The notes beneath the pieces are model-generated. The model made no database searches and had not been told where the DNA came from. It saw nothing but the letters and a program-made list of their open reading frames with translations. A stretch of 14,092 nt of DNA. Origin: Clostridia bacterium (lineage in GTDB: Bacteria; Bacillota; Clostridia; Christensenellales; Aristaeellaceae). The stretch covers positions 1 through 14,092 of the forward strand of contig JAZRWA010000022.1 in assembly GCA_045599485.1 (NCBI GenBank), written 5' to 3'. This document shows positions 536-13,365 of the stretch, one piece after another; position 1 is the first letter of the stretch, and each line of letters begins with the position of its first letter. The position numbers were made by a program, and so were the translations under genes.

Positions 536-1339
536 TTACCGCCGTCCCAGCTGCCAGAAGGCCACAGCGCCGGCGGCAGCCACGTTCAGCGAATCCACCC
601 CGTGCGCCATGGGAATCAGCACGGTGTAATCACAGCCGCGGATGGTTTCCTCGCGCAGTCCGTTGCCTTCCGCCCCCAGCACCAGCGCCAGACGCTCCTA
701 TGCCATCAGCCGCGCGTCGTCCACGGCAATGGAACGCTTCGTCAGTGCCAATGCCGCCGAGGCAAAACCCAATGTCTTCAGCTCTCCCGCCACATCGTTG
801 GAGGGCAGGTACGCCCAAGGTACCTGAAAGACCGTGCCCATGCTGACACGTACGGCACGCCGGTGCAGCGGGTCACAGCAGGAGGGGCTCAGCAGCACCG
901 CCTCCATGCCCAGCGCGGCGGCGGAGCGGATCAGGGCGCCGATGTTGGTAGCGTCCGTCACGGCTTCCAGCACGGCGACGCGGCGCGCGCCCCGGCATGC
1001 CTCTCCGGCGGTGCGTTCGGGCGGCCGCTTCATCAGACAGCGGATGCAGCGGTCCGGCATGCAGCCGAGGATGTCGCCCAGCAGCGCATCGGGTCCGGTA
1101 TATACCGGTACGCTGTCATCACAGCGGGCCAAAGCCTCTGCCGCCTGCCCCGTGATGTGCTTTTTTTCCATCATAAAGGCCACGGGGGTGAGCCCCGCGT
1201 CCAGCGCGTGCAGCACCACTTTGCCGCTTTCCGCCATGAAAAGCGCTTCCCGGGGGCGCTGCAGGCTGCGCAGCTGCGCGTCGGTGCGCCGGAAGGGCTC
1301 CAGCTCCGGGGCGTTCGCATCCTTTACTTCAATGATCAT
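536..1339 (-). CDS. TrmH/SpoU family RNA 2'-O-methyltransferase, 267 codons if the in-frame TAG at complement(698..700) is decoded
   Basis: The track ORF 698..1339(-) ends ...SIAVDDARLMA at a TAG. The same frame continues ERLALVLGAEGNGLREETIRGCDYTVLIPMAHGVDSLNVAAAGAVAFWQLGRR to a TAA at 536-538. SpoU motif 1 (LEAVTDATNIGALIRSAAALG) is upstream of the TAG; motifs 2 and 3 (LVLGAEGNGL, IPM..GVDSLNVAAAGAVAFW) are downstream. GGAGG RBS at complement(1345..1349), 5 nt before the ATG. Confidence 0.85.
698..700 (-). other. In-frame TAG codon inside the TrmH-family gene (candidate sense/recoded UAG)
   Basis: Minus-strand reading ...CTG ATG GCA TAG GAG CGT CTG GCG CTG GTG CTG GGG GCG GAA GGC AAC... 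= L M A * E R L A L V L G A E G N. There is no frame change. Confidence 0.8.
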
Positions 1340-1368
1340 GGTGTCCTCCGCGGTGTTGTTCTGCGCCG

Positions 1369-1397
1369 ATTGTAATGCCGTGCCGCTCCGCTGTCAA
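1369..1397 (-). promoter_or_regulatory. Sigma-70/SigA-type promoter for the TrmH-family gene
   Basis: Minus strand: TTGACA (complement 1392-1397), 17-nt spacer, TACAAT (complement 1369-1374). It lies about 30 nt upstream of the ATG at 1339. Confidence 0.6.
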
Positions 1398-1415
1398 GTG
1401 CGATGCAGTTTTTGC

Positions 1416-1444
1416 TTTTATTCCGTGGGGTTTTATAGTATAAT
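1416..1444 (+). promoter_or_regulatory. Possible promoter for the PucR-type regulator gene (good -10, weak -35)
   Basis: TATAAT at 1439-1444. Only a weak -35 (TTTTAT, 1416-1421) sits at 17-nt spacing; TTGCTT at 1412-1417 would need a 21-nt spacer. Located in the divergent intergenic region. Confidence 0.35.
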
Positions 1445-1487
1445 GGATAAAATGATGTTTTTATGCCCGTGAAAGGAGAAGCAAAGC

Positions 1488-2537
1488 ATGGAGCAATCCG
1501 TTCTGGATGAGATCGGCGGCATTCTTTCCTCTTTGGACAGCCGCGTGCTGCTGCTGGATGCGTCGGGCACTTGTCTGGCCCCGTCCGCGGGGGAAAAAAT
1601 AACGCTGCCCAGGCATTTATCCTTCGGCGGCGTGGCGGAAAAAGACGGCAGGCTGTTTTTTGCTTCCGCCCGGGAGCCGCTGATCATTGCCTCCGATAAA
1701 CAGAACGGCGGCGATGTGCCGCTGATGGCGCTGCGGCTGTGCGAAAGCCTGCTGACGCGCCGGCGTACGGAGGGCGAAGGAAGCTTTTGGTACCGCCTGC
1801 TGACGGGCACACTTTCCGCCGGATAGACCGAAGCGTTGATCCGTGAGAACGGCATTGAGGACGCGCTGCGGGCGGTCATGATCCTGCAATTGCCTGCTTT
1901 GAAACATGGCACGGCGCAGGAAATGCTGGAGGCCAACCTGCCGCTGACCCCGGGACACGATGTGCTGGTGCCGCTCGACAGCCGCACGGCGGCGCTCATC
2001 AAGCCCGTTTCGGCGGGAGACAGCCCGCAGGACCTGATGGAATACGCCGAGGCGGTGCGTGAAACGCTGCTCAGCGAGGAAGGCGAAGACGCTGTGATCG
2101 CCGTAAGCGACATCATCGGCGAAGCCGCCGCGCTGCATGCCGCCTTTCAGCACGCGGGCGAAGCCATGGAAACAGGCCGTACCTTCCGCCCGGAAATGCG
2201 GGTCTACGGCTATGACGCGCTGCTGCTGGAGCGCTTTCTCAGCGATATTCCGCCCGAGACAGCGGCACGCTACCACCAACTGCTGTTCAACCGCCGCACC
2301 GCACGTGTGCTGACGGAGGAGATCCTGGACACAGTCAGCATGTTTTTTGAAAAGGACCTGAACCTGTCGGACACGGCCCGGCAGCTGTACATCCATCGCA
2401 ACACGCTGGTATACCGTCTGGATAAGATCCAGCGGCTGACCGGTCTGGATCTGAGAAAGTTTGATGATGCCGTGACCTTCCGCATGCTGCTTGAAATGAA
2501 AAAATGCGCAGAGAAGGGAAAGCACCCTACTGCCTGA
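1488..2537 (+). CDS. PucR/CdaR-family transcriptional regulator (C-terminal PucR HTH), 349 codons if the in-frame TAG at 1824..1826 is decoded
   Basis: Track ORFs 1488..1826 and 1836..2537 are in the same frame (348 nt apart). They read ...YRLLTGTLSAG * TEALIRENGIEDALRAV... The C-terminus carries the PucR-type HTH (LNLSDTARQLYIHRNTLVYRLDKIQRLTGLDLR). RBS AAAGGAGAA at 1472-1480, ATG at 1488, TGA stop at 2535-2537. Confidence 0.8.
1824..1826 (+). other. In-frame TAG codon inside the PucR-family gene (candidate sense/recoded UAG)
   Basis: GCC GGA TAG ACC GAA GCG TTG ATC CGT GAG AAC GGC = A G * T E A L I R E N G. The frame is unchanged, and the DNA-binding domain is encoded about 600 nt downstream. 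Confidence 0.75.
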
Positions 2538-2552
2538 CGGAGGAAAACAAAC

Positions 2553-3767
2553 ATGAAAAAACGGTTTTTTGCCCTGCTTTTATGCCTGGTGCTGTGCTGC
2601 TCCGCGGCTTTGGCGGACAGCGTTTTCGGCAACAACGGCGTGTTTGGCGTGGGCGGCACGGTCACCATTACCCGGGCGGAATACGAGCGCCTCAAGCAGT
2701 ATGAAAAGCTGGACGAGGTGCTGCAGTATATTGAAGCCTACTATTACAAAGAGCCCGACACCGGCGACATGATGGACATGGCCATTCAGGGCCTGCTGGC
2801 CGGCTTGAATGACCCCTATACCTTCTATTATGACGCCGAAGCCTGGGCGGACATGTGGGAGGAGGAAGAGGGCGAGTACACGGGTATCGGTCTGCAGCTG
2901 CTGGGCAGCTATCTGGACTACACCGTGACCATCACCCGTGTCTTCCGTGATACCCCCGCCGAAAAGGTGGGGCTGAGAAAGAATGACCTGCTGGTGCGTG
3001 TGGAGGACATCACCGTGACCACCGAGACCATGCAGAACGCCGTCAATGTGATGCGCGGCAAGGTGGGCGAAAGCGTGGAGGTGGAGGTGTACCGCGACGG
3101 CGAATACCTGACCTTTACGGTCGAACGCGCCGCCATCCACACCAACAATGTGGATTGGTGCATGCTGGATAACAACGTGGGCTATCTGATCCTGTACCAG
3201 TTCTCCACGGAATCGCTGCTGCAGGATTTCAAGACCGCATTGAAGGACCTGGAGGCGCAGGGCGCCAGGAGCCTGGTGCTGGATCTGCGTGACAACCCCG
3301 GCGGCTGGGTCAATGACGCCGTCGGTGTGGCGGATGTTTTCCTGGATAAAAAACTGGTGGTCTATTCCCGTACCCGTGACCAGGAACGCACCGATGAGCA
3401 GTATACCAAAGCCGGGGCGGATGATATTCCGCTGGTGGTGCTGATCAACGGCTCCTCCGCTTCGTCCAGCGAGATCTTGTCCGGCTGTCTGCAGGATTAC
3501 GGCCGCGCCGTCATCATGGGCAGCCAGAGCTTCGGCAAGGGCGTCATGCAGTATGTGATCGGCCTGTCCGATAACAAGACGGGCATGCAGTTTACCTTCT
3601 GCGAGTACTTTACCCCCAACGGCAACAGCGTGCACGGCATCGGCATTACCCCGGATATCGCGGTGGAAATGCCCGCCGATCTGAAAAACAAGCTGTTTGA
3701 GGTAGGCGACATGGCCGACCCGCAGCTGGCGGCGGCATGGGAAGAGGCCGTGCGCCTGCAGCAGTGA
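2553..3767 (+). CDS. S41 family C-terminal processing (tail-specific) protease, exported
   Basis: 404 aa. Signal peptide MKKRFFALLLCLVLCCSAALA/DS, a PDZ-like region, the S41 serine motif (LINGSSASSSEILSGCLQD) and the FGKG lysine motif. GGAGG at 2539-2543, TGA stop. Confidence 0.9.
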   Translation: MKKRFFALLLCLVLCCSAALADSVFGNNGVFGVGGTVTITRAEYERLKQYEKLDEVLQYIEAYYYKEPDTGDMMDMAIQGLLAGLNDPYTFYYDAEAWADMWEEEEGEYTGIGLQLLGSYLDYTVTITRVFRDTPAEKVGLRKNDLLVRVEDITVTTETMQNAVNVMRGKVGESVEVEVYRDGEYLTFTVERAAIHTNNVDWCMLDNNVGYLILYQFSTESLLQDFKTALKDLEAQGARSLVLDLRDNPGGWVNDAVGVADVFLDKKLVVYSRTRDQERTDEQYTKAGADDIPLVVLINGSSASSSEILSGCLQDYGRAVIMGSQSFGKGVMQYVIGLSDNKTGMQFTFCEYFTPNGNSVHGIGITPDIAVEMPADLKNKLFEVGDMADPQLAAAWEEAVRLQQ

Positions 3768-3779
3768 CGGGAGGTTCAA

Positions 3780-4742
3780 GTGAAAAAACGGATATCGACC
3801 TTTTTGCTGCTGATGCTGCTTGTGTCGCTGCTGTGCCCGGCGGTGCTGGCGGATGAGGTGATTCCCGCCCATGATAAGCACGAACGCCCCGAGATCGAGG
3901 GCATGGGGGAGGACGGTTTTCTGACACAGGCGGAGGCGGAATTTGTGCTGGCCGATGCAGAAGAAGGCCTGTGGATGTATGTCAGCGATGCCCTGCGCAT
4001 TGAAATTGACCGCTACACCGCCTCCAACCGCAAGCTGATCTGGTACACCGCGCACATATGGCAAAAGGAAGGGGACGGCATGCACACCTTCCTGGCCGAC
4101 CCGGCGCATCCCTTCGGTCTAGCGCTGCTGGTGGAGGAAATTGCCCGGCAGTATCAATTGGTGTTTGCCATCAATGGTGACTTTTTTGAGGATCGTTACC
4201 GTGAGGGCGAAAAGATCGGCTGCGTCATCAAAAACAAAGTGGTCATCAACCGCTATGCGCAGGAACTGGATAACCTGCCCACGCTGGATGTGCTGGCGCT
4301 GTTTGAGGACGGCACCATGAAATGCTTTAGGGCGCGCAGCAACAGCGCGGACAAATATCTGGCCATGGGCGTGCGCGACACCATCTGCTTCGGTCCCATT
4401 CTGGTGTCCGAGGGCAGCATCAATATGAAGCAGCTGGAGGAATACGGCCGCTCCCGCGAGCCGCGCACCGCGCTTGGCATGGTGGAAAACGGACATTATG
4501 TTGCCATCGTCTGCGAGGGACGCTCGGAGGAGAGCGACGGCCTGCGCCTGAGTGAGCTGGCCCCCCTGATGCAGGCGGAGGGCTGTGTGGAAGCGCTCAA
4601 CCTTGACGGCGGTCAGACCTCGGTCATCAGCTTTATGGGCGAAAAGCTCAATGCCACCGGTACCTTCCATAACAGCTCCAGACCGCGCCGCGTGACGGAT
4701 ATCGTGGGCATTGGCGTAAGCGATCTGGTTTCCGCCGAGTAA
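3780..4742 (+). CDS. Phosphodiester glycosidase family protein (NAGPA / DUF2233-like), exported, paralog 1
   Basis: 320 aa, GTG start 5 nt after GGGAGG (3769-3774). Signal peptide MKKRISTFLLLMLLVSLLCPAVLA/DE. Family-typical motifs: REPRTALG...GHYVAIVCEGR and EALNLDGGQTSV. TAA stop. Confidence 0.8.
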   Translation: MKKRISTFLLLMLLVSLLCPAVLADEVIPAHDKHERPEIEGMGEDGFLTQAEAEFVLADAEEGLWMYVSDALRIEIDRYTASNRKLIWYTAHIWQKEGDGMHTFLADPAHPFGLALLVEEIARQYQLVFAINGDFFEDRYREGEKIGCVIKNKVVINRYAQELDNLPTLDVLALFEDGTMKCFRARSNSADKYLAMGVRDTICFGPILVSEGSINMKQLEEYGRSREPRTALGMVENGHYVAIVCEGRSEESDGLRLSELAPLMQAEGCVEALNLDGGQTSVISFMGEKLNATGTFHNSSRPRRVTDIVGIGVSDLVSAE

Positions 4743-4766
4743 ACAACAGAGGAGAAAAACAACCAT

Positions 4767-5711
4767 ATGAAAAAAGCGCTGATGGCGCTGCTGCTTTTGC
4801 TTTCGGTGTGCGGCGGCGCGCTGGCGGATGTGCCGGTGAGAGCCAATGAGCCGTGTGCCCGCCCCGAGGTGGAAAACCTGGGGGAGGATGGCTATCTGAC
4901 CGAAACGGATGAGCTTGTGTTCATCGATGAAACGGCGGGACTGTGGTACTATGTCAGTGATGAGCTGCGCGTGGAGATCGACCGCTATACGGCCTCCGAC
5001 CGCAAGCTGATCTGGTATGTGGCGCATCTGTATCAGAAAACGCCCACTGGTCTGCGTACCGCGCTGGCAAATGAAAAAAAGCCCTACGATGACCGCATGT
5101 GGGTGTATGATCTGGCTGAGAGGGAAAAGATGGTCTTTGCCACCAACGGCGATTATTTTGCCACCCGTCTGGATGAATCCGCCGGTGTGGGCATCGTCAT
5201 CCGTCATGGACGGGTCATCAGCTCCAAGGGCAAAGCGAGCAGCAAGATCCCCACGCGGGAGATCATCGCCATGTATGAGGACGGCAGCATGAAGTGCTAT
5301 GGCGCCAACGAATACAAGGCGTCCTCTCTGGCGGAAGCCGGCGTGCGTGATACGCTGTGCTTTGGCCCCATTCTGGTACGGGATGGGCAGGTGGAGACCA
5401 AACGCCTGGACGAGATGGGCTCCTCCCGTGAGCCGCGGTGCGCTATCGGCATGGTGGAGCCCGGCCATTATGTGGCCATCCTGACGGAAGGCCGTACGGA
5501 TGACTCGATCGGCGCACGTCTTTTGACGCTGGGCGATATGATGGCGGCGGAGGGCTGTGTGGAGGCGCTGAACCTGGACGGCGGACAATCGGCTGTCATG
5601 TGCTTCATGGGCAAAAAGATCAGCTCCACCGGGCATACTTCCACCAGCACCCAGAGCCGCAAGATGACCGACATTGTCGGCATCGGCTACAGTGAACTTG
5701 TAGGACAGTGA
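4767..5711 (+). CDS. Phosphodiester glycosidase family protein (NAGPA / DUF2233-like), exported, paralog 2
   Basis: 314 aa. Signal peptide MKKALMALLLLLSVCGGALA/DV. Collinear with the upstream paralog (EIDRYTASDRKLIWYVAHLY, REPRCAIGMVEPGHYVAILTEGR, AEGCVEALNLDGGQSAV). TGA stop. Confidence 0.8.
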   Translation: MKKALMALLLLLSVCGGALADVPVRANEPCARPEVENLGEDGYLTETDELVFIDETAGLWYYVSDELRVEIDRYTASDRKLIWYVAHLYQKTPTGLRTALANEKKPYDDRMWVYDLAEREKMVFATNGDYFATRLDESAGVGIVIRHGRVISSKGKASSKIPTREIIAMYEDGSMKCYGANEYKASSLAEAGVRDTLCFGPILVRDGQVETKRLDEMGSSREPRCAIGMVEPGHYVAILTEGRTDDSIGARLLTLGDMMAAEGCVEALNLDGGQSAVMCFMGKKISSTGHTSTSTQSRKMTDIVGIGYSELVGQ

Positions 5712-5713
5712 AT

Positions 5714-6892
5714 ATGAAAAAAATGCTGATGTATGCCGTGCTGCTGCTGACGCTGCTGATGACGGCGGCGTGTGCAGAGACGGCGGCGGAGCGTACCGCC
5801 TCCTGCACATTCAAGCTGGGAAAAACGGCTTTGACACAGAAGGAACGCGGCAAGCTGCTGGACAGGGATTATTCCACCCATTATGATATCGCGAGCCGCA
5901 AAACACTGACCATCGAAAGCGAAAAGCAGCTGGGCGGCATGTACCTGCAGATCTTTGATGTGGTGCGCGCGCTGACCATGGAAGTGAAAACCAACGGCGA
6001 ATGGCAGGAGTACTGCGTCAATCCCCAGCATCTGAGCGACTGGTACGCTTTCCCGGATAAGACCACGGCAGTGCGCATTTACAACGCCGATAAGGAAAAC
6101 AAGCTCAAGCTGGCGGAAGTGACCCTGTACGGCCCCGGGGACAAGCCCGAAAAGGTACCGCAGTGGATCGATCTGGAGAAGTGCGACCTGATGCTTCTGG
6201 CGACGCATCCCGATGACGATCTGCTGTGGTTCGGCGGCCTGATGCCCACCTACGCGGGGGAAAGGGGCTACAAGGTGCAGGTGGTGTACATGGTGCCCAC
6301 CGGCGGACTGCGCAAGCTGGAAATGCTGGACGCCCTGTGGACCTGCGGCGTCACGGCTTATCCCGGCCTGCTCAATCTGCGCGACCAGCGCGGCAAAAAC
6401 CTCAGTGAGCAGTACTCCCTGTGGGGACAGAAGACCGTCACCACCAAGGTGGTGGAGGCCATCCGCCGCTATAAGCCGTAGGTGCTGGTCACGCATGGTC
6501 TGGGCGGTGAATACGGACACCCCGGTCATAAGGCCGCGGCGGATACCGTGACGCGCGCCGTCGGTTATGCCGCGGATAAAAGCAACCGCCCCGCCTCAGT
6601 GGAAAAGTACGGTGTGTGGCAGGTCAAAAAGGTCTATCTGCATGAGTACAGCAAAAATCAGATCGAGATGGACTGGCATGTGCCGTTGGAAGCCTTTGGC
6701 GGCAAGGACAGCCTGACCGTCGCGCAGGAGGCCATGCTCTGCCACGCCAGCCAGGTCAAGGGCGGCTGGATGGTGGAGGACCACGGCAAGCATGATAATA
6801 CGCTTTTCGGTCTTTACAGCACCACGGTGGGTGAGGACATCGAGAAGAATGATTTTATGGAAAATATCGTCCTGGAGAACAATACACCGTAA
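5714..6892 (+). CDS. PIG-L/LmbE family deacetylase with lipoprotein-type signal and extra N-terminal domain, 392 codons if the in-frame TAG at 6479..6481 is decoded
   Basis: Track ORFs 5708..6481 and 6482..6892 are contiguous in the same frame: ...VVEAIRRYKP * VLVTHGLGGEYGHPGHKAAA... The PIG-L motif LLATHPDDDLLWFGG is upstream of the TAG and the HP(G/D)H motif is downstream. The likely start is ATG 5714 (MKKMLMYAVLLLTLLMTAAC, lipobox-like); GTG 5708 is an alternative. TAA stop at 6890-6892. Confidence 0.8.
6479..6481 (+). other. In-frame TAG codon inside the PIG-L deacetylase gene (candidate sense/recoded UAG)
   Basis: TAT AAG CCG TAG GTG CTG GTC ACG CAT GGT = Y K P * V L V T H G. It sits inside the conserved 'R.xKP-x-VvvTH' stretch of the family. 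Confidence 0.8.
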
Positions 6893-6898
6893 CGCATG

Positions 6899-6928
6899 GA
6901 AAGGGAGTCCGGATGAGGGCTCCCTTTC
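6899..6928 (+). terminator. Stem-loop after the PIG-L gene (possible terminator or mRNA-end structure; lacks a clear U-tract)
   Basis: GAAAGGGAG (6899-6907) pairs with CTCCCTTTC (6920-6928), extendable by TCC/GGG. It starts 7 nt after the TAA. It is followed by TGACAAAC, which is not T-rich. Confidence 0.4.
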
Positions 6929-6967
6929 TGACAAACAGGATTTGAACATTTCTTGCTCGGTTGTTAT

Positions 6968-6996
6968 TTGAAATTTTTTTCGGGAGAGTATATAAT
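6968..6996 (+). promoter_or_regulatory. Sigma-70/SigA-type promoter for the glycosyltransferase gene
   Basis: TTGAAA (6968-6973), 17-nt spacer, TATAAT (6991-6996), in an AT-rich intergenic region about 30 nt upstream of the ATG at 7027. Confidence 0.55.
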
Positions 6997-7026
6997 AGAA
7001 AAAAGACCGAAAAAAGGAGGTGCACG

Positions 7027-8298
7027 ATGGAACCAAGGATCAGAACAGCTTTGCTGAACGACTCTTTTCCGCCGCAGATCGACGGCGTGGCCAACGCGGT
7101 GATCAATTATGCCTCGCTGCTGCATGGCCGCGGGGATGATGTCATGGTGATCACGCCGGCCTATCCCGGTGTGGAGGATCATTATGATTATGAGGTGCTG
7201 CGCTATTCCAGTGTGGACACCACCAAGATCATCGGTTATCGTGCCGGTTACCCTTTTTCGGCTTCCGCTGTGCAGCGGGTGGTGGATTTTGCCCCTGATA
7301 TTCTGCACACGCATTGCCCCGTCTCTTCGCTGCTGATGGCCCGCGTGGTGCGGTAGAGGACCGGTGCGCCCATTGTGTTTACCTATCATACCAAGTTTGA
7401 TATCGATATCCGCACCGCCATCAAAAGCAAGGCACTGCAGGACAGCCTGATCCGCGCCATTCTGTGGAACATTGAGGGCGCCGATGAGGTATGGACGGTC
7501 AGCCGCGGCGCGGGAGAGAATCTGGAATCCATCGGCTATCAGGGCAAGTGGCGCGTGATGGACAACGGTGTTGATTTTGCCCGCGGTCACGCCTCGATGG
7601 AAAAACAGAACGAGATCAGCCGCCTGCATAACCTGACCGATCACGCACCGGTGTTTTTGTTTACCGGCCGTCTGCGCTGGTACAAGGGCATCCGCATCAT
7701 TCTTTAGGGTCTGGCCAAGGCCAAAGCCCGCGGCGCCAAGTTTCATATGCTGTTTGTGGGCGATGGCAGCGACCGCGGTGAGATCGAGGAGCTGGCGCAA
7801 AAGCTGGGGCTGACCGATCAATGCGTCTTTGTGGGCGCGGTGCAGGATCGTGAGCTGCTGCGGGCGTATTACAGCCGTGCCGATCTGTTCCTGTTCCCGT
7901 CTACCTTTGATACCAACGGCATCGTGGTGCGCGAGGCGGCCGCCTGCGGTCTGGGTGCCGTGCTGGTCAAGGGCAGCTGTGCCGCCGAGGGCATTACCGA
8001 TGGACAGAATGGCATCCTCATCGGTGAAAATGCCGACAGTCTGTGCGCGGCGGTGCTGTTTGCCTGCTCCCACCGCAATGAAGTGCGGCAGGTCGGCCTG
8101 CATGCGGAGAATGAGATCTATCTTTCCTGGGAGGATTCGGTGGCGCGGGCTCGTACCCGTTATGCCGAGCTGCTGGAGGAGCGCAAAGCAAACCCGCCGG
8201 AAAAGCGGCATGATGCCTTTCCTTTCCTGTCCGACATTGTGGAGGGCGCCGGCCGCCTGCAGCGGTGGCATCGCCTGCTGAACGCCAAGCTGAAGTGA
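7027..8298 (+). CDS. Family 4 (GT-B) glycosyltransferase, 423 codons if the two in-frame TAGs (7354..7356, 7705..7707) are decoded
   Basis: Track ORFs 6961..7356, 7375..7707 and 7747..8298 all share one frame. They read ...CPVSSLLMARVVR * RTGAPIVFTYHTKFDIDI... and ...GRLRWYKGIRIIL * GLAKAKARGAKFHMLFVGDGSD... The N-terminus is GT4-like (LNDSFPPQIDGVANAV). The C-terminal Glycos_transf_1-like domain has FPSTFDTNGIVVREAAACG. AAGGAGG at 7013-7019, ATG at 7027, TGA stop at 8296-8298. Confidence 0.85.
7354..7356 (+). other. In-frame TAG codon #1 inside the GT4 gene (candidate sense/recoded UAG)
   Basis: GTG GTG CGG TAG AGG ACC GGT GCG CCC ATT GTG TTT ACC TAT CAT = V V R * R T G A P I V F T Y H. No frame change. 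Confidence 0.8.
7705..7707 (+). other. In-frame TAG codon #2 inside the GT4 gene (candidate sense/recoded UAG)
   Basis: ATC ATT CTT TAG GGT CTG GCC AAG GCC AAA = I I L * G L A K A K. It lies in the 'KG(l/i)xxLlxAl' helix that opens the C-terminal Rossmann domain. Confidence 0.8.
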
Positions 8299-8328
8299 TT
8301 CCGCTTCAATAAACAATCATCAAAACAG

Positions 8329-8361
8329 GCACCTTTTGCGATCGGGCAAAGGTGCTTTTTG
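8329..8361 (+). terminator. Rho-independent terminator of the glycosyltransferase gene
   Basis: GCACCTTTTGC (8329-8339) pairs with GCAAAGGTGC (8346-8355) with one bulged T, followed by TTTTTG. Confidence 0.8.
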
Positions 8362-8381
8362 CTTGCGGCGGCATTTTTGCG

Positions 8382-8414
8382 CAAAACAAAAATCCTTGAG
8401 GAAATCTCAAGGAT
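8382..8414 (-). terminator. Rho-independent terminator of the tRNA-Ser pair
   Basis: Minus strand: ATCCTTGAG-ATTTC-CTCAAGGAT (9-bp stem, 8392-8414) followed by TTTTGTTTTG. It begins 4 nt after the tRNA 3' CCA. Confidence 0.8.
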
Positions 8415-8418
8415 CTTG

Positions 8419-8510
8419 TGGCGGAGAAGGAGAGATTTGAACTCTCGCTGCCGTTATCCAGCACTACTCCCTTAGCAGGGGAGCCCCTTCGGCCTCTTGG
8501 GTACTTCTCC
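8419..8510 (-). tRNA. tRNA-Ser (anticodon GCU), class II with long variable arm, CCA encoded
   Basis: Minus strand folded by hand: GGAGAAG-TA-CCC..GGG-G-CTCCC-CTGCTAA-GGGAG-(20-nt variable arm)-GAGAG-TTCAAAT-CTCTC-CTTCTCC-G-CCA. The anticodon loop CU-GCU-AA reads AGY. Confidence 0.9.
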
Positions 8511-8532
8511 ATCGGTCGGTAATCGGCAAAAC

Positions 8533-8621
8533 TGGCGGAGAGAGAGGGATTCGAACCCCCGGTGCCTTTCGACATCACCAGTTTTCAAGACTGGCGCCTT
8601 AAACCGCTCGGCCATCTCTCC
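8533..8621 (-). tRNA. tRNA-Ser (anticodon UGA), class II with long variable arm, CCA encoded
   Basis: Minus strand folded by hand: GGAGAGA-TG-GCC..GGC-G-CCAGT-CTTGAAA-ACTGG-(variable arm)-GGGGG-TTCGAAT-CCCTC-TCTCTCC-G-CCA. The anticodon loop CU-UGA-AA reads UCN. Confidence 0.9.
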
Positions 8622-8659
8622 GTACCGGCTCGATAGCCTGTCTGCCAATGTACTGATAA

Positions 8660-8688
8660 AGTATAGCAGTTTTTTTCCCTGTTGTCAA
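8660..8688 (-). promoter_or_regulatory. Sigma-70/SigA-type promoter for the tRNA-Ser pair
   Basis: Minus strand: TTGACA (complement 8683-8688), 17-nt spacer, TATACT (complement 8660-8665). It lies about 40 nt upstream of the tRNA 5' end at 8621. Confidence 0.6.
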
Positions 8689-8764
8689 TGCCCGTTCGCT
8701 AATTTCTTTTGAGGCGCGGGGGAAGGGAAAACGCGGCTTTTTTTTCGCAAAATGCCCATAATTA

Positions 8765-8794
8765 TTGACATAATACGGTGTTTTATCCTATAAT
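8765..8794 (+). promoter_or_regulatory. Sigma-70/SigA-type promoter for prfC-typA
   Basis: TTGACA (8765-8770), 18-nt spacer, TATAAT (8789-8794). A small hairpin TGTGGC-AAC-GCCACA (8802-8816) sits just before the RBS GGAAGGAGGG. Confidence 0.65.
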
Positions 8795-8831
8795 AACTGA
8801 TTGTGGCAACGCCACAGGAAGGAGGGCACTT

Positions 8832-10421
8832 ATGCTCGCAGAGGAAGTAGCCCGCAGAAGAACATTTGCTATTATCTCCCATCCCGACGCCGGCAAAACC
8901 ACATTGACCGAAAAACTGCTGCTGTACGGCGGCGCCATCCGCCAGGCCGGTTCCGTCAAGGCCCGCAAGGCAGAACGCCACGCGACCAGCGACTGGATGG
9001 AGATCGAAAAGCAGCGCGGCATCTCCGTTACCTCCAGTGCCATGCAGTTCTCCTTCAACGGTTTTGATATCAACATTCTCGATACCCCCGGCCATCAGGA
9101 CTTTTCCGAGGATACCTACCGCGTGCTGGTGGCAGCGGACAGCGCTGTGATGCTCATCGACGCCGCCAAGGGCGTGGAGGAGCAGACCATCAAGCTGTTC
9201 AAGGTGTGCCGTATGCGCGGCATTCCGATTTTTACCTTTGTCAACAAGATGGACCGTGCCGCCAAGGATCCCTTCGCCCTGATGGACGAACTGGAAAACG
9301 TGCTTGGCATCCACGCCTGCCCCATCAACTGGCCCATTGGCACCGACGGCGATTTTCAGGGCGTGTATCACCGTGATACCCGCATGATCGAATTGTATTC
9401 CGGCGGCGATCACGGCAAGAACAAGGCGCAGAAGACCGATGTTTCTCTGGACGATCCCGACCTGGGAACGCTGCTGGAAAAGCACTACATCAACCGCCTG
9501 AATGACGAGATCGAGCTGCTGGACGAGGCCGGCGACGATTTTGATCTGGAGGCCGTGCGCGAAGGCAGGCTGACCCCCATGTTCTTTGGCAGCGCCGTCA
9601 CCAACTTCGGTGTGGAGCCTTTCCTGGAGCGGTTCCTGTCCTACACCACGCCGCCCCTGCCCCGCGAGAGCAATGAGGGCTGGGTGCAGCCCGATGATGA
9701 ACGCTTCAGCGGCTTCATCTTCAAAATTCAGGCCAACATGAACCCCGCCCACCGTGACCGTCTGGCCTTCCTGCGCATCGTCAGCGGCCAGTTCACCAAA
9801 GGCATGACGGTGTGGCATTCCGGCACCGGCAAGGAGATCCAGGTCAAGCAGCCGCAGCAGTTTATGGCAGATGAGCGTGAAGGCATCGAAACGGCCTGGC
9901 CCGGCGATATCATCGGTCTGTTCGATCCCGGTATTTATCATCTGGGCGACACGCTGTGCGTGGGCCGCAAGATCCGCTTCCAGAAGATCCCCGTGTTTGC
10001 GCCCGAGCATTTTGCCCGTGTGCGTCCGCTGGATTCGATGAAGCGCAAGCAGTTTGTCAAGGGCATCATGCAGCTGAGCGAGGAAGGCGCCATCCAGACC
10101 TTCCGCCGCACCGAGACCGGCATTGAGGATTTCCTTGTCGGCGTGGTCGGTGTGCTGCAGTTTGATGTGCTGACCTACCGCCTCAAGAGTGAGTACGGTG
10201 TCGATCTGGTACTGGAGCAGTTGCCCTTCCGCTATGTGCGTTGGGTGACCGCCACCGAGATCCCCGTGCCCGACCTGAAGCTGACCAGCACCTCCGGCCG
10301 TGCTTTTGACGCCGAGGAGCGGGATGTACTGCTGTTTGAAAACGAGTGGAGCATCCGTCTGGCACAGGAAAACAACAAGGGCCTGGAGCTGGCCGAACTG
10401 GCTCCCCGCGAGATCTACTGA
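8832..10421 (+). CDS. prfC: Peptide chain release factor 3 (RF3), translational GTPase
   Basis: 529 aa starting MLAEEVARRRTFAIISHPDAGKTTLTEKLLLYGGAIRQAGSVKARK...DWMEIEKQRGISVTSS...DTPGHQDF..NKMDR. This is the characteristic RF3 N-terminus with G motifs, and the length is RF3-like. ATG 8832 lies 5 nt after GGAAGGAGGG. TGA stop at 10419-10421. Confidence 0.9.
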   Translation: MLAEEVARRRTFAIISHPDAGKTTLTEKLLLYGGAIRQAGSVKARKAERHATSDWMEIEKQRGISVTSSAMQFSFNGFDINILDTPGHQDFSEDTYRVLVAADSAVMLIDAAKGVEEQTIKLFKVCRMRGIPIFTFVNKMDRAAKDPFALMDELENVLGIHACPINWPIGTDGDFQGVYHRDTRMIELYSGGDHGKNKAQKTDVSLDDPDLGTLLEKHYINRLNDEIELLDEAGDDFDLEAVREGRLTPMFFGSAVTNFGVEPFLERFLSYTTPPLPRESNEGWVQPDDERFSGFIFKIQANMNPAHRDRLAFLRIVSGQFTKGMTVWHSGTGKEIQVKQPQQFMADEREGIETAWPGDIIGLFDPGIYHLGDTLCVGRKIRFQKIPVFAPEHFARVRPLDSMKRKQFVKGIMQLSEEGAIQTFRRTETGIEDFLVGVVGVLQFDVLTYRLKSEYGVDLVLEQLPFRYVRWVTATEIPVPDLKLTSTSGRAFDAEERDVLLFENEWSIRLAQENNKGLELAELAPREIY

Positions 10422-10439
10422 TAGAAAGTGTGAAACTGC

Positions 10440-12266
10440 ATGATTCGTTCTGATATCCGCAACATTGCGATTATCGCCCACGTTGACCACGGCAAGACCT
10501 CCCTGGTCAACGAAATGCTCAAGCAGGGCGGCGTTTTCCGTGCCAATCAGGAGGTGGCTGACCGCGTCATGGACTCCAACGATCTGGAGCGCGAGCGCGG
10601 CATCACCATTCTGTCCAAAAACACGGCGGTGCACTACGGCGATGTCAAGATCAACATCGTCGACACCCCCGGCCACGCCGACTTTGGCGGCGAGGTGGAG
10701 CGCGTGCTCAAAATGGTGGACGGCGTGCTGCTGCTGGTGGACAGCTTTGAAGGTCCCATGCCGCAGACCCGCTTCGTGCTGTCCAAGGCGCTGGCGCTGA
10801 ACCTGCCCGTGCTGATCTGCATCAACAAGATCGACCGTCCCGACGCCCGCTGCGGCGAGGTGGTGGACGAGATCCTCGATCTGCTGATCGACCTGAACGC
10901 CGATCCCGAAACGCTGGAGCGCCCCATCCTGTATGCTTCTGCCCGCAAGGGTACCTGTACGCTGGATCTGGAGCAGCCCGGCACCGACCTGCGTCCGCTG
11001 TTTGAAGCCATCCTCAAGTACATTCCCGCCCCCGAGGGCGAGATGGATGGCCCTGCGCAGGTGCTGATCTCCACCATTGACTACAGCGAATACGTGGGCC
11101 GTATCGGCATCGGCCGCATCAGCCGCGGCAGCCTGAGATCCGGTCAGATGGTGGTGCGCTGCAACTATCTGGATGACAAGGTGACGCCCCCGTGGCGCTT
11201 GACCGAGCTGAGCACCTTTGACGGCCTCAAGCGTATCCCGACCGATCAGATGGCCATGGGCGATATCGTGGCGCTGACGGGTCTGCAGGATATCAGCATC
11301 GGTGATACGGTGTGTCAGCCCGATACGGTGGAGCCCCTGCCCTTTGTGACCATCAGCGAGCCCACGGTGACCATGACCTTCTCGGTCAACGATTCGCCCT
11401 TTGCCGGCCGCGAAGGCCAGTTTGTGACGAGCCGTCACCTGCGTGCCCGTCTCTATCGTGAACTGCAGACCGATATGTCCCTGCGCGTCAAGGACGGCGA
11501 AACGCCCGATTGCTTTGAGGTGTGCGGACGCGGTGAGCTGCATCTGTCCATTCTGATCGAGACCATGCGCCGTCAGGGCTATGAGTTCCAGGTGTCCAAA
11601 CCCGAGGTCATCTACAAGGAGATCGACGGCGTATCCTGCGAGCCCATTGAGCGCATGGTGGCGGATGTGCCCTCCGCTTATGCCGGCGCCGTCATCGAAA
11701 AGATCGGCCGCCGCCGCGGCACGCTGGAAAGCATGGACGGCACCGACCGTGTGCGCCTGGAGTTCCTGGTGCCCAGCCGCGGACTGTTTGGCTACCGCAG
11801 TGAGTTTTTGACCGATACCCGCGGCGAAGGCGTGATGAGCTCGGTATTTGAAAAGTACGAGCCCTTCCGCGGCGACATTCCGCACCGCGCTGTGGGCGCC
11901 CTGATCGTGCACGAAACGGGCGAGACCACGACCTATGGTCTGTTCTACGCGCAGGAGCGCGGCACGCTGTTCATGGGCAATCAGGTGCCTGTGTACGCCG
12001 GTCAGATCTGCGGCGCAAGCAGCCGCCCCGGCGATATCCCCGTCAATGTTTGCCGCAAAAAGCATGTCAACAACATCCGCAACAGCTCTGCCGCCGAAGA
12101 CAGCATGCGCCTGGTCAGCGTGCATCCGCTGACGCTGGAGGAGTGCCTGGAGTTTATCGACAGCGATGAGCTGCTTGAGATCACGCCCAAGACCCTGCGC
12201 ATGCGCAAGCGTGTGCTGAGCCATGAGCAGCGCATGAAGAACGCTGCCCGCGGCATCAAGTGCTGA
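10440..12266 (+). CDS. typA: Translational GTPase TypA/BipA
   Basis: 608 aa. [24 protein letters not shown]..., [37 protein letters not shown], and a C-terminal BipA-type domain. TGA stop. Confidence 0.92.
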
Positions 12267-12868
12267 CGCCGCTGCTTTCCGCCATAGGCATAGCAGTTTG
12301 CCTGCCGCTGTTTATGCGGCTGAAAAGAAAGGCAAACGTGCCGATGGCTGCGGTGCTGGCAGCCAAATGCGGCGGCACGGCGATGGCGGCGCTGATGGCC
12401 CTTCAGGGTGCGCTGCGGCTGAACACCGCGGGAGCATGGCTGATGTTTGCCGCCGCAGTGGTGTGCGTCGTTGCCGATGGGGTGCTGCATGTGCGCTTTT
12501 TTGCCGGCGGCATCCTGTTTGCCCTGGGGCATGTGCTGTACATGATCTCCTTCTGTTTGCGGGGATTGCCGGGCTGGCAGAGCGCTGTGATGTTTGCGCT
12601 GCTTGCCGCGTCCGCGATGGCGTTTATCCGCATACAGAACGAAAAGCCGCAGCCCTTCATTGTGCCCTACGCGCTGGTGCTGTGCCTGATGACCGCCATG
12701 TCCTTTTCAAGAGGTCCCCTGTGCTTTGCCGGGGCGCTGCTGTTTGCCTTTTCGGATGGCATGCTGCTGTGGCGCATGGAAGGGCATCACAGTGAAGCCT
12801 CCGACTGGGTCGCCATGGGCAGCTATTACGCCGCGCAGTATTTGCTGGCATTGTCGCTGCTACGGTGA
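12260..12868 (+). CDS. YhhN-family (lysoplasmalogenase-like, TMEM86-type) integral membrane protein
   Basis: About 202 aa, multi-pass hydrophobic, with YhhN-like motifs (ILFALGHVLYM, GALLFAFSDGMLLW). The GTG start at 12260 overlaps the typA TGA (GTGCTGA). An internal ATG start at about 12314 cannot be excluded. TGA stop. Confidence 0.65.
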   Translation: MLTPLLSAIGIAVCLPLFMRLKRKANVPMAAVLAAKCGGTAMAALMALQGALRLNTAGAWLMFAAAVVCVVADGVLHVRFFAGGILFALGHVLYMISFCLRGLPGWQSAVMFALLAASAMAFIRIQNEKPQPFIVPYALVLCLMTAMSFSRGPLCFAGALLFAFSDGMLLWRMEGHHSEASDWVAMGSYYAAQYLLALSLLR

Positions 12869-12886
12869 AAAAGGGGCAAAAAAGAC

Positions 12887-12916
12887 TTGTCAAGGAACCA
12901 CTTTGTGTGGTATAAT
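12887..12916 (+). promoter_or_regulatory. Sigma-70/SigA-type promoter (extended -10) for rplS
   Basis: TTGTCA (12887-12892), 18-nt spacer ending in TGG, TATAAT (12911-12916). It leaves a leader of about 95 nt before the rplS ATG. Confidence 0.55.
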
Positions 12917-13014
12917 TACCCTTGCGTAAACGGATGGTCCGCTTTCGGACAGCAACGGTCTGTACCTGACCGGTCCGGAATGAACATCTATGAGGGAAGG
13001 AGGAACTATTCAAA

Positions 13015-13365
13015 ATGAGCGAAATTATCAAGAGCATTGAAAATGCGCAGCTTCGTACCGATCGTCCCGCATTCAACGTTGGCGACACCGTGCGTGTGCA
13101 GGTCAAGGTTGTTGAAGGTACCCGCGAGCGTCTGCAGGCGTTCGAAGGTGTTGTGATTGCCAAGCGCAATGGCTCCTGCCGTGAGACCTTTACGGTCCGC
13201 CGCGTGAGCTACGGCATCGGCGTGGAACGTACGTTCCCGCTGCATAGCCCCCGTGTGGACAGCATTACTGTTGTCCGTAAGGGCAAGGTGCGCCGCGCCA
13301 AGCTGTATTATCTGCGTGGTCTGCAGGGCAAGGCTGCCAAGATCAAGGACATCACCCGCGAATAA
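13015..13365 (+). CDS. rplS: 50S ribosomal protein L19
   Basis: 116 aa: [111 protein letters not shown]. This is a canonical L19. GAAGGAGG RBS, TAA stop. Confidence 0.95.

Follow-up and report, generated by a model that had tools for sequence, protein, structure and literature searches.

Does UAG still end genes in the gut bacterium from which contig JAZRWA010000022.1 derives, or has it become a codon for an amino acid and, if so, for which one? The window analyzed here is the whole of a 14,092-nucleotide stretch (assembly GCA_045599485.1, labelled Clostridia bacterium; contig positions 1 to 14,092, forward strand), in which four otherwise intact genes, encoding a TrmH/SpoU-family RNA methyltransferase (TrmH), a PucR-type transcriptional regulator (PucR), a PIG-L family deacetylase (PIG-L), and a GT4 glycosyltransferase (GT4), are interrupted by five in-frame TAG codons. 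Comparison with related assemblies leads us to conclude that UAG is probably a sense codon in this lineage, read as glutamate, and not a terminator. The interrupted genes and their TAG sites are given below, with the codons at the same positions in sister members of the lineage and in a nearer outgroup (L047), retrieved loci being denoted by L numbers.

Positions 536-1339, minus strand: TrmH/SpoU-family RNA methyltransferase gene, 267 codons with one TAG read through; stop codon TAA.
Positions 698-700, minus strand: in-frame TAG, TrmH codon 214; GAA (Glu) in L001 and L038; TAG in this assembly only.
Positions 1488-2537, plus strand: PucR-type transcriptional regulator gene, 349 codons with one TAG read through; stop codon TGA.
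Positions 1824-1826, plus strand: in-frame TAG, PucR codon 113; GAG (Glu) in L001 and L038; TAG in this assembly only.
Positions 5714-6892, plus strand: PIG-L family deacetylase gene with a signal peptide, 392 codons with one TAG read through; stop codon TAA.
Positions 6479-6481, plus strand: in-frame TAG, PIG-L codon 256; GAT or GAC (Asp) in sister members; TAG in this assembly only.
Positions 7027-8298, plus strand: GT4 glycosyltransferase gene, 423 codons with two TAGs read through; stop codon TGA.
Positions 7354-7356, plus strand: in-frame TAG, GT4 codon 110; common to the whole lineage; GAG (Glu) in outgroup L047.
Positions 7705-7707, plus strand: in-frame TAG, GT4 codon 227; GAA or GAG (Glu) in other members and in L047; TAG in this assembly only.

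Translation in a single frame reproduces what the first-pass annotation had reported for these genes, namely five TAGs in four genes at these coordinates, each triplet being TAG, and reconstructed lengths of 267, 349, 392, and 423 codons. Its statement that the window holds neither TGA nor TAA in frame and no frameshift likewise held in the 11 complete genes, whose 3,942 codons include five TAG, zero TGA, and zero TAA in frame, and every gene of the window stops at TGA or TAA, none at TAG. Parts of the proteins needed for function had been placed downstream of the TAGs, and Pfam domains do extend across them in TrmH (SpoU_methylase, E=5e-32, residues 121-261, with the TAG inside the match), PIG-L (residues 160-282), and GT4 (Glyco_transf_4 at residues 18-186 and Glycos_transf_1 at residues 195-351, one TAG within each), with the HTH_30 domain of PucR (residues 280-336) lying 3′ of its TAG. 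The TrmH orthologue from a horse-faeces metagenome-assembled genome (MAG) is uninterrupted, 267 amino acids long, and 91% identical. The base following TAG is G, A, or C, and no common motif surrounds the TAGs; context-specific readthrough signals and miscalls at methylation motifs were dropped as explanations on that ground.

One part of the original argument did not survive. Five interruptions by the same stop codon had been given a chance probability of (1/3)^5, which overstates the case: of the single-base paths to a nonsense codon open to the codon usage of the window, 57.5% lead to TAG, so that five TAGs out of five have p of ~6%. Because that calculation fails, the case rests on comparative evidence, and the window alone would not convince. 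Codon usage also predicts some enrichment of TAG at glutamate positions under mutation alone, since no codon leads to TAG in one step more often than GAG does (27% of routes; the window holds 166 GAG, 119 GAA, 108 CAG, and 28 GGA). Under this mutational null, the chance that a site is a TAG with a GAG precursor is 0.575 x 0.27, or ~3e-7 for eight such sites, the number that the lineage as a whole turned out to contain.

Relatives were found by scanning GTDB species representatives with the S41 protease encoded in the window. The horse-faeces MAG (GCA_024404275.1; loci L001 and L026) shares ~90.5% DNA identity with the window, and other members of the lineage, an ENA assembly (ERZ27247129, L036) and more than 10 Logan runs (L027-L044, L046), share 84-95%; more distant relatives, labelled Clostridia, Oscillospiraceae, or Christensenella, reach at most 73% protein identity. 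The evidence is drawn entirely from a single syntenic region, ~14 kb long, with ~16 gene families. Within it, the TAG at GT4 codon 110 recurs in 12 further contigs from at least 10 independent assemblies (an NCBI MAG, an ENA assembly, and eight Logan runs), including L026 and L036-L044, at 84-90% DNA identity with the window. For the shared sites, their presence in so many assemblies made independently rules out an artefact. The members also carry TAGs where the window has none:

Codon 162 of NAGPA1, one of two NAGPA paralogues: TAG in L026 and L036; Glu in the window and L038.
Codon 68 of TrmH: TAG in L038, L046, and one more contig; GAG in the window.
Codon 230 of TrmH: TAG in L038; a variable site.

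In total, the lineage has eight distinct sites, spread over five gene families and without exception TAG, and its members have neither in-frame TGA or TAA nor a frameshift. The density of TAG is 1.3 per 1,000 codons in the window and 0.7-1.25 in the sister contigs.

Whether TAG is translated was judged from the selection acting beyond it. Over the 313 codons of GT4 that lie 3′ of TAG-110, the window and the sisters sharing that TAG differ by ~90 synonymous and ~17 nonsynonymous changes, giving a ratio of nonsynonymous to synonymous divergence (dN/dS) of 0.04-0.05 at a synonymous divergence (dS) of ~0.5. In every member, RTGAPI is encoded by the six codons that separate TAG-110 from the first possible restart codon, and the differences immediately after the TAG are synonymous only (AGG/CGC, GGT/GGC, GCG/GCA, CCC/CCT, ATT/ATA, GTG/GTT). 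In TrmH, the sequence 3′ of the shared TAG-68 has a dN/dS of 0.16. Because the downstream sequence stays under strong protein-level selection in members that share the TAG, these comparisons show that ribosomes must pass these TAGs in frame; pseudogenes, and genes split by a stop and a restart, are therefore excluded at such sites.

The residue inserted at UAG can be judged from the columns in which TAG occurs. At PucR-113, 24 of the 25 syntenic orthologues, which range down to 35% identity, have Glu, and the most distant has Asp. Among homologues at large, Glu occupies TrmH-214 in 106 of 119, TrmH-68 in 74 of 119, and GT4-110 in 102 of 120. Two columns are divided between the acidic residues, GT4-227 (64 Glu and 43 Asp among 120 homologues) and PIG-L-256 (67 Glu and 36 Asp among 148, with Glu in the nearest outgroup L047), and TrmH-230 is Gln, Ser, or Glu within the lineage, with Gln in most members. 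Seven of the eight sites thus correspond to Glu, either in close relatives or as the family consensus, and the eighth, TrmH-230, is variable. Summed over columns, the log10 odds are +5.8 for Glu, +0.2 for Asp, −2.4 for Gln, and −4.9 for Lys, making the columns more likely under Glu than under Asp by ~10^5 and than under Gln by ~10^8. The residue encoded by UAG in this lineage is, as these alignments suggest, most likely glutamate. They show, too, that TAG codons have arisen repeatedly, and only where relatives have Glu, allowing for one site that is Asp inside the lineage and one that is variable. The proposal that TAG had passed from stop to sense is supported by a TAG shared across ~10% DNA divergence, by purifying selection downstream, by extra TAGs in sister contigs, and by their mapping to Glu. 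As an observation on one of these columns, L046 (positions 2410-3213) has AAA (Lys) at TrmH codon 214, where the window has TAG and other members have GAA, so that a position that is 89% Glu is not strictly invariant inside the lineage.

Four other accounts of these TAGs need to be weighed. The likeliest of them holds that UAG is read through without dedicated glutamate decoding, whether by loss of release factor 1 (RF1) and insertion of Gln, Tyr, or Lys by near-cognate tRNAs or by a suppressor that inserts Gln or pyrrolysine, with the TAGs lying at tolerant positions. We think this unlikely. Readthrough as such is well supported by the selection tests, prokaryotes with pyrrolysine-type UAG decoding exist, most lineage members have Gln at TrmH-230, and, as no tRNA(CUA) was found in the window or the loci scanned, the residue is deduced from alignments; yet seven of the eight sites are Glu, several of them nearly invariant (PucR-113 in 24 of 25, TrmH-214 in 89%, GT4-110 in 85%), and the columns prefer Glu over Gln by the ~10^8 given above. 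Were TAG read as Gln, neutral CAG-to-TAG transitions should favor Gln positions, CAG being nearly as common in the window as GAG (108 against 166). No methylamine methyltransferase is among the interrupted genes, which belong to the SpoU, PucR, PIG-L, GT4, and NAGPA families, and this set of genes, with conserved Glu at the sites and a log10 odds of −4.9 for Lys, speaks against pyrrolysine decoding. A plainer alternative, that ordinary nonsense mutations have made pseudogenes of four genes in a decaying region, could draw on GAG being the commonest one-step precursor of TAG, on TAG being the likeliest nonsense outcome (57.5%), and on an isolated, ordinary in-frame TAG, aligned with Leu, in another retrieved locus (L048, described below). 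It is nevertheless very improbable, because TAG has been kept across members at a dS of ~0.5 while the sequence downstream evolved at a dN/dS of 0.04-0.05, which contradicts pseudogenes; some 4,000 window codons and the sister contigs contain no TGA, TAA, or frameshift; and the mutational null gives a probability of ~3e-7 for eight sites of which each is TAG and each of the Glu type. The neighboring genes, moreover, are intact and compactly spaced.

The same selection bears on the idea that the genes are split, with termination at TAG, a restart downstream, and two polypeptides as the product. Gene callers using translation table 11 do yield separate products (for GT4, one of 109 and one of 307 amino acids), and a GTG lies six codons 3′ of TAG-110, but the six codons leading to that GTG are conserved as protein, with synonymous changes only, and the breaks fall inside single Pfam domains. 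The piece of TrmH beyond codon 214 has only 53 amino acids and still holds the C-terminal part of the SpoU domain, and splitting would leave unexplained why each break is a TAG at a Glu position. We therefore regard split genes as highly improbable. Sequencing or assembly errors, for instance G-to-T changes in GAG codons, would account readily for the four of the five window sites that occur in this assembly only. Errors are all the same an extremely improbable source, given that GT4 TAG-110 occurs in at least 10 independently assembled samples, NAGPA1 TAG-162 in two assemblies, and TrmH TAG-68 in three contigs, that TAG density is alike in the window and its sisters, and that random G-to-T changes would also turn GAA (119 codons) into TAA and GGA (28) into TGA, neither of which is seen.

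If UAG is a sense codon, genes of the lineage should no longer end in TAG. The lineage contigs have 98 open reading frame (ORF) ends, 47 TAA, 36 TGA, and 15 TAG, and all 15 of the last are internal sites or belong to antisense ORFs. No true gene end in TAG was found in the lineage among ~16 gene families (83 redundant ends), where about one would be expected at the ~6% seen in relatives. The relatives L002-L025, whose S41 proteases are 48-73% identical (29% in L025), use TAG for that ~6% of stops, TAG thus being seldom a stop across the clade, and just such low use would be expected to precede capture of the amber codon. These relatives, at ~70% identity, stop real genes at TAG, as in an L002 gene upstream of, and in frame with, murI, and no homology-supported in-frame TAG was found among them; those picked up by a crude ORF screen were rejected as antisense shadow ORFs or as same-frame neighbors parted by a true TAG stop. 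Nor does the nearer outgroup L047 have an in-frame TAG within ~1,500 codons. Because relatives at ~70% protein identity still stop at TAG, the UAG sense trait is, as far as these comparisons indicate, confined to a narrow lineage.

The nucleoside-kinase fragment at the left end of the window also led to two unrelated organisms. In one, a human gut sequence (ENA ERZ28617938; L048, positions 2607-4259), codon 400 of the nucleoside-kinase gene is an in-frame TAG, the only one in the gene, and Leu stands at that position in 36 of 56 homologues; another L048 gene stops at TAG, and runs of N occur there in other assemblies. In appearance this TAG is an ordinary nonsense lesion, or else an assembly problem; for the Glu pattern, it provides a negative control. 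In the other, a 2.39-Mb contig (GCA_050953025.1; L056), the genes for an HI0933-like protein, nucleoside kinase, RimK, and Smr at ~6600-12500 lie in pieces of 50-150 amino acids, which look like the result of long-read insertion and deletion errors; the locus also encodes selA and selB.

We consider it likely that the lineage uses a natural bacterial code in which UAG is glutamate and UAA and UGA are stops, a code of recent origin, still at an early stage, in gut Clostridia rich in guanine and cytosine (GC) and without genome reduction. It would be the first bacterial code to give UAG to one of the standard amino acids, and nature's first example of RF1, and not RF2, becoming dispensable. The scarcity of TAG stops in the clade would have made the change tolerable. 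A tRNA with anticodon CUA, charged with Glu, would decode UAG, and RF1 would have been lost or weakened, leaving RF2 with UAA and UGA. GAG-to-TAG would then have become a near-neutral synonymous change and drifted in, such that TAG would now amount to ~1-2% of Glu codons (5 of the 290 Glu-type codons in the window), and the reassignment looks to be at an early stage.

Several observations weigh against this code, and they concern both its machinery and its reach. Four of the five window TAGs are private to this one assembly, and the lack of TAG stops counts for little, relatives stopping at TAG only ~6% of the time. Neither the window nor any of the 35 loci scanned yielded a tRNA with a CUA anticodon, and when JGI metagenomes and IMG/VR were scanned for a CUA-bearing anticodon arm of the tRNA-Glu type, the one match was due to chance and is not a tRNA; this negative is weak, as it depends on a pattern modelled on bacterial tRNA-Glu. 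No release factor gene with a GGQ motif, RF1 included, was seen in the retrieved loci of the syntenic region. Bacterial glutamyl-tRNA synthetase reads the anticodon, and a tRNA-Glu(CUA) would need a compensating change. A mutation spectrum biased toward G-to-T would likewise place nonsense TAGs at GAG codons and mimic the Glu columns; the assignment to Glu therefore hangs on the evidence for selection and not on alignment columns alone. Finally, a "genome-wide" reassignment is an extrapolation from one region of ~14 kb.

How would such a code sit among those already described? The first-pass annotation had stated that general UAG sense decoding in core genes of a GC-rich Firmicutes-like bacterium is not, so far as known, an established code, and in literature up to August 2026 we found no bacterial code that assigns UAG to an amino acid; a literature search for the MAG accession likewise turned up nothing. 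According to published accounts, known bacterial stop reassignments all involve UGA, read as Trp (table 4) or Gly (table 25), and code-prediction tools for prokaryotes span only tables 4, 11, and 25. In tables 4 and 25, as here, a stop codon has turned to sense across ordinary chromosomal genes of a bacterial lineage, by means of a tRNA with a matching anticodon and loss of the codon-specific release factor; we propose the equivalent here, with tRNA(CUA) and RF1 in those roles. The differences are that the codon is UAG, the residue Glu, and the factor expected to be dispensable RF1, where those codes have UGA, Trp or Gly, and RF2, and that the host is GC-rich (~59%) and the region unreduced. 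Our case thus appears to work like the table 4 and 25 reassignments with another codon, another amino acid, and another release factor.

UAG as glutamate has precedents among eukaryotes. The peritrich ciliate nuclear code reads both UAA and UAG (UAR) as Glu. UAG or UAR as Glu has also been described for another protist, Blastocrithidia nonstop, and no further cases of that assignment are described (PMC12153298). The peritrich and Blastocrithidia codes share with the lineage the reading of UAG as glutamate; they operate with eRF1 and have reassigned UAA as well, whereas here the host is a bacterium and UAA is a normal stop. Among prokaryotes, the sole genome-wide recoding of UAG so far described is to pyrrolysine (Pyl), in archaea, and there too UAG is sense and TAG stops are rare. 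The Pyl system, however, needs pylTSBCD, inserts a lysine derivative, and acts classically in methylamine methyltransferases, whereas the TAGs of this lineage stand at conserved Glu positions of unrelated housekeeping and envelope genes. Laboratory amber-suppressor strains, and recoded Escherichia coli with RF1 deleted, show that bacteria tolerate UAG as sense given a tRNA(CUA) and few or no remaining TAG stops; those strains were engineered or selected in the laboratory, and here the trait would be natural, inherited, and common to several diverged gut populations.

Gut phages are a further source of in-frame TAG in gut microbiome sequence, TAG reportedly being read there as Gln or other residues by phage suppressor tRNAs (Ivanova 2014; Borges 2022). 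The contig differs from these in being chromosomal (rplS, typA, prfC, tRNA-Ser), in the residue, which is Glu, and in having its TAGs in core genes of the host. No phage genes were found on the contig, which carries rplS, typA, prfC, tRNA-Ser, and envelope genes, and a TAG-recoded phage or prophage was rejected on this chromosomal context.

Should the code be as proposed, the amber codon could be captured in bacteria outside the pyrrolysine system, and in a GC-rich, unreduced genome. A view of such a change at an early stage, with about one codon in 800 being TAG, would help to test codon-capture and ambiguous-intermediate models, and a natural pair of tRNA(CUA) and Glu-charging enzyme, together with an RF1-independent host, would be of interest to genetic-code engineers. 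A more immediate consequence concerns databases, as table-11 annotation silently splits genes of this lineage. The 307-amino-acid C-terminal fragment of GT4 from the horse-faeces MAG (MCQ2453906.1; L026, positions 2871-4142) is publicly annotated as a normal "glycosyltransferase", and the table-11 protein fragments of the window are deposited as separate entries (P0121, P0249, and P0251). Code prediction from coding density would probably miss a change of this kind; Pyl recoding is similarly easily overlooked, table-11 coding density hardly falling, a problem that the gTranslate authors note for UAG-to-Pyl.

The remaining content of the window is that of ordinary chromosomal DNA (GC ~59%), without sign of genome reduction in the region, and the neighbors of the interrupted genes are intact and compactly spaced. 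Its other genes are as follows.

Positions 2553-5711, plus strand: S41 protease and two NAGPA paralogues, uninterrupted in the window; stop codons TGA, TAA, and TGA.
Positions 8778-13365, plus strand: prfC (release factor 3), typA, a YhhN-family gene, and rplS, uninterrupted, none with a TAG stop; identified with Pfam.

Because prfC, typA, the YhhN-family gene, and rplS are present, the segment that they occupy is chromosomal, and its proteins are 98.5-100% identical to those of sister genomes; the contig as a whole belongs to the chromosome of an uncultured lineage of gut Clostridia, one related to Christensenellales/Aristaeellaceae. Two tRNA-Ser genes are the sole Rfam matches in the window, and both of its ends carry truncated genes, the left one being the nucleoside-kinase fragment mentioned above. 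On the minus strand, positions 8685-12224 hold an ORF of 1,179 amino acids with no Pfam match, antisense to prfC and typA, which was rejected as a gene and taken for a shadow ORF typical of GC-rich DNA. Between positions 3780 and 8298, tandem NAGPA (phosphodiester glycosidase) paralogues are followed by the secreted PIG-L deacetylase and the GT4 glycosyltransferase, an arrangement that looks like a cell-envelope glycan cluster and is kept in outgroup L047. To the right of rplS, the window and L028-L031 encode a secreted protein of 234 amino acids, where L027 (positions 900-2350) and L033 (positions 850-1628), ~95% identical to the window over rplS, have an HTH_19 regulator and small ORFs instead, so that this segment may be a small mobile or variable insert.

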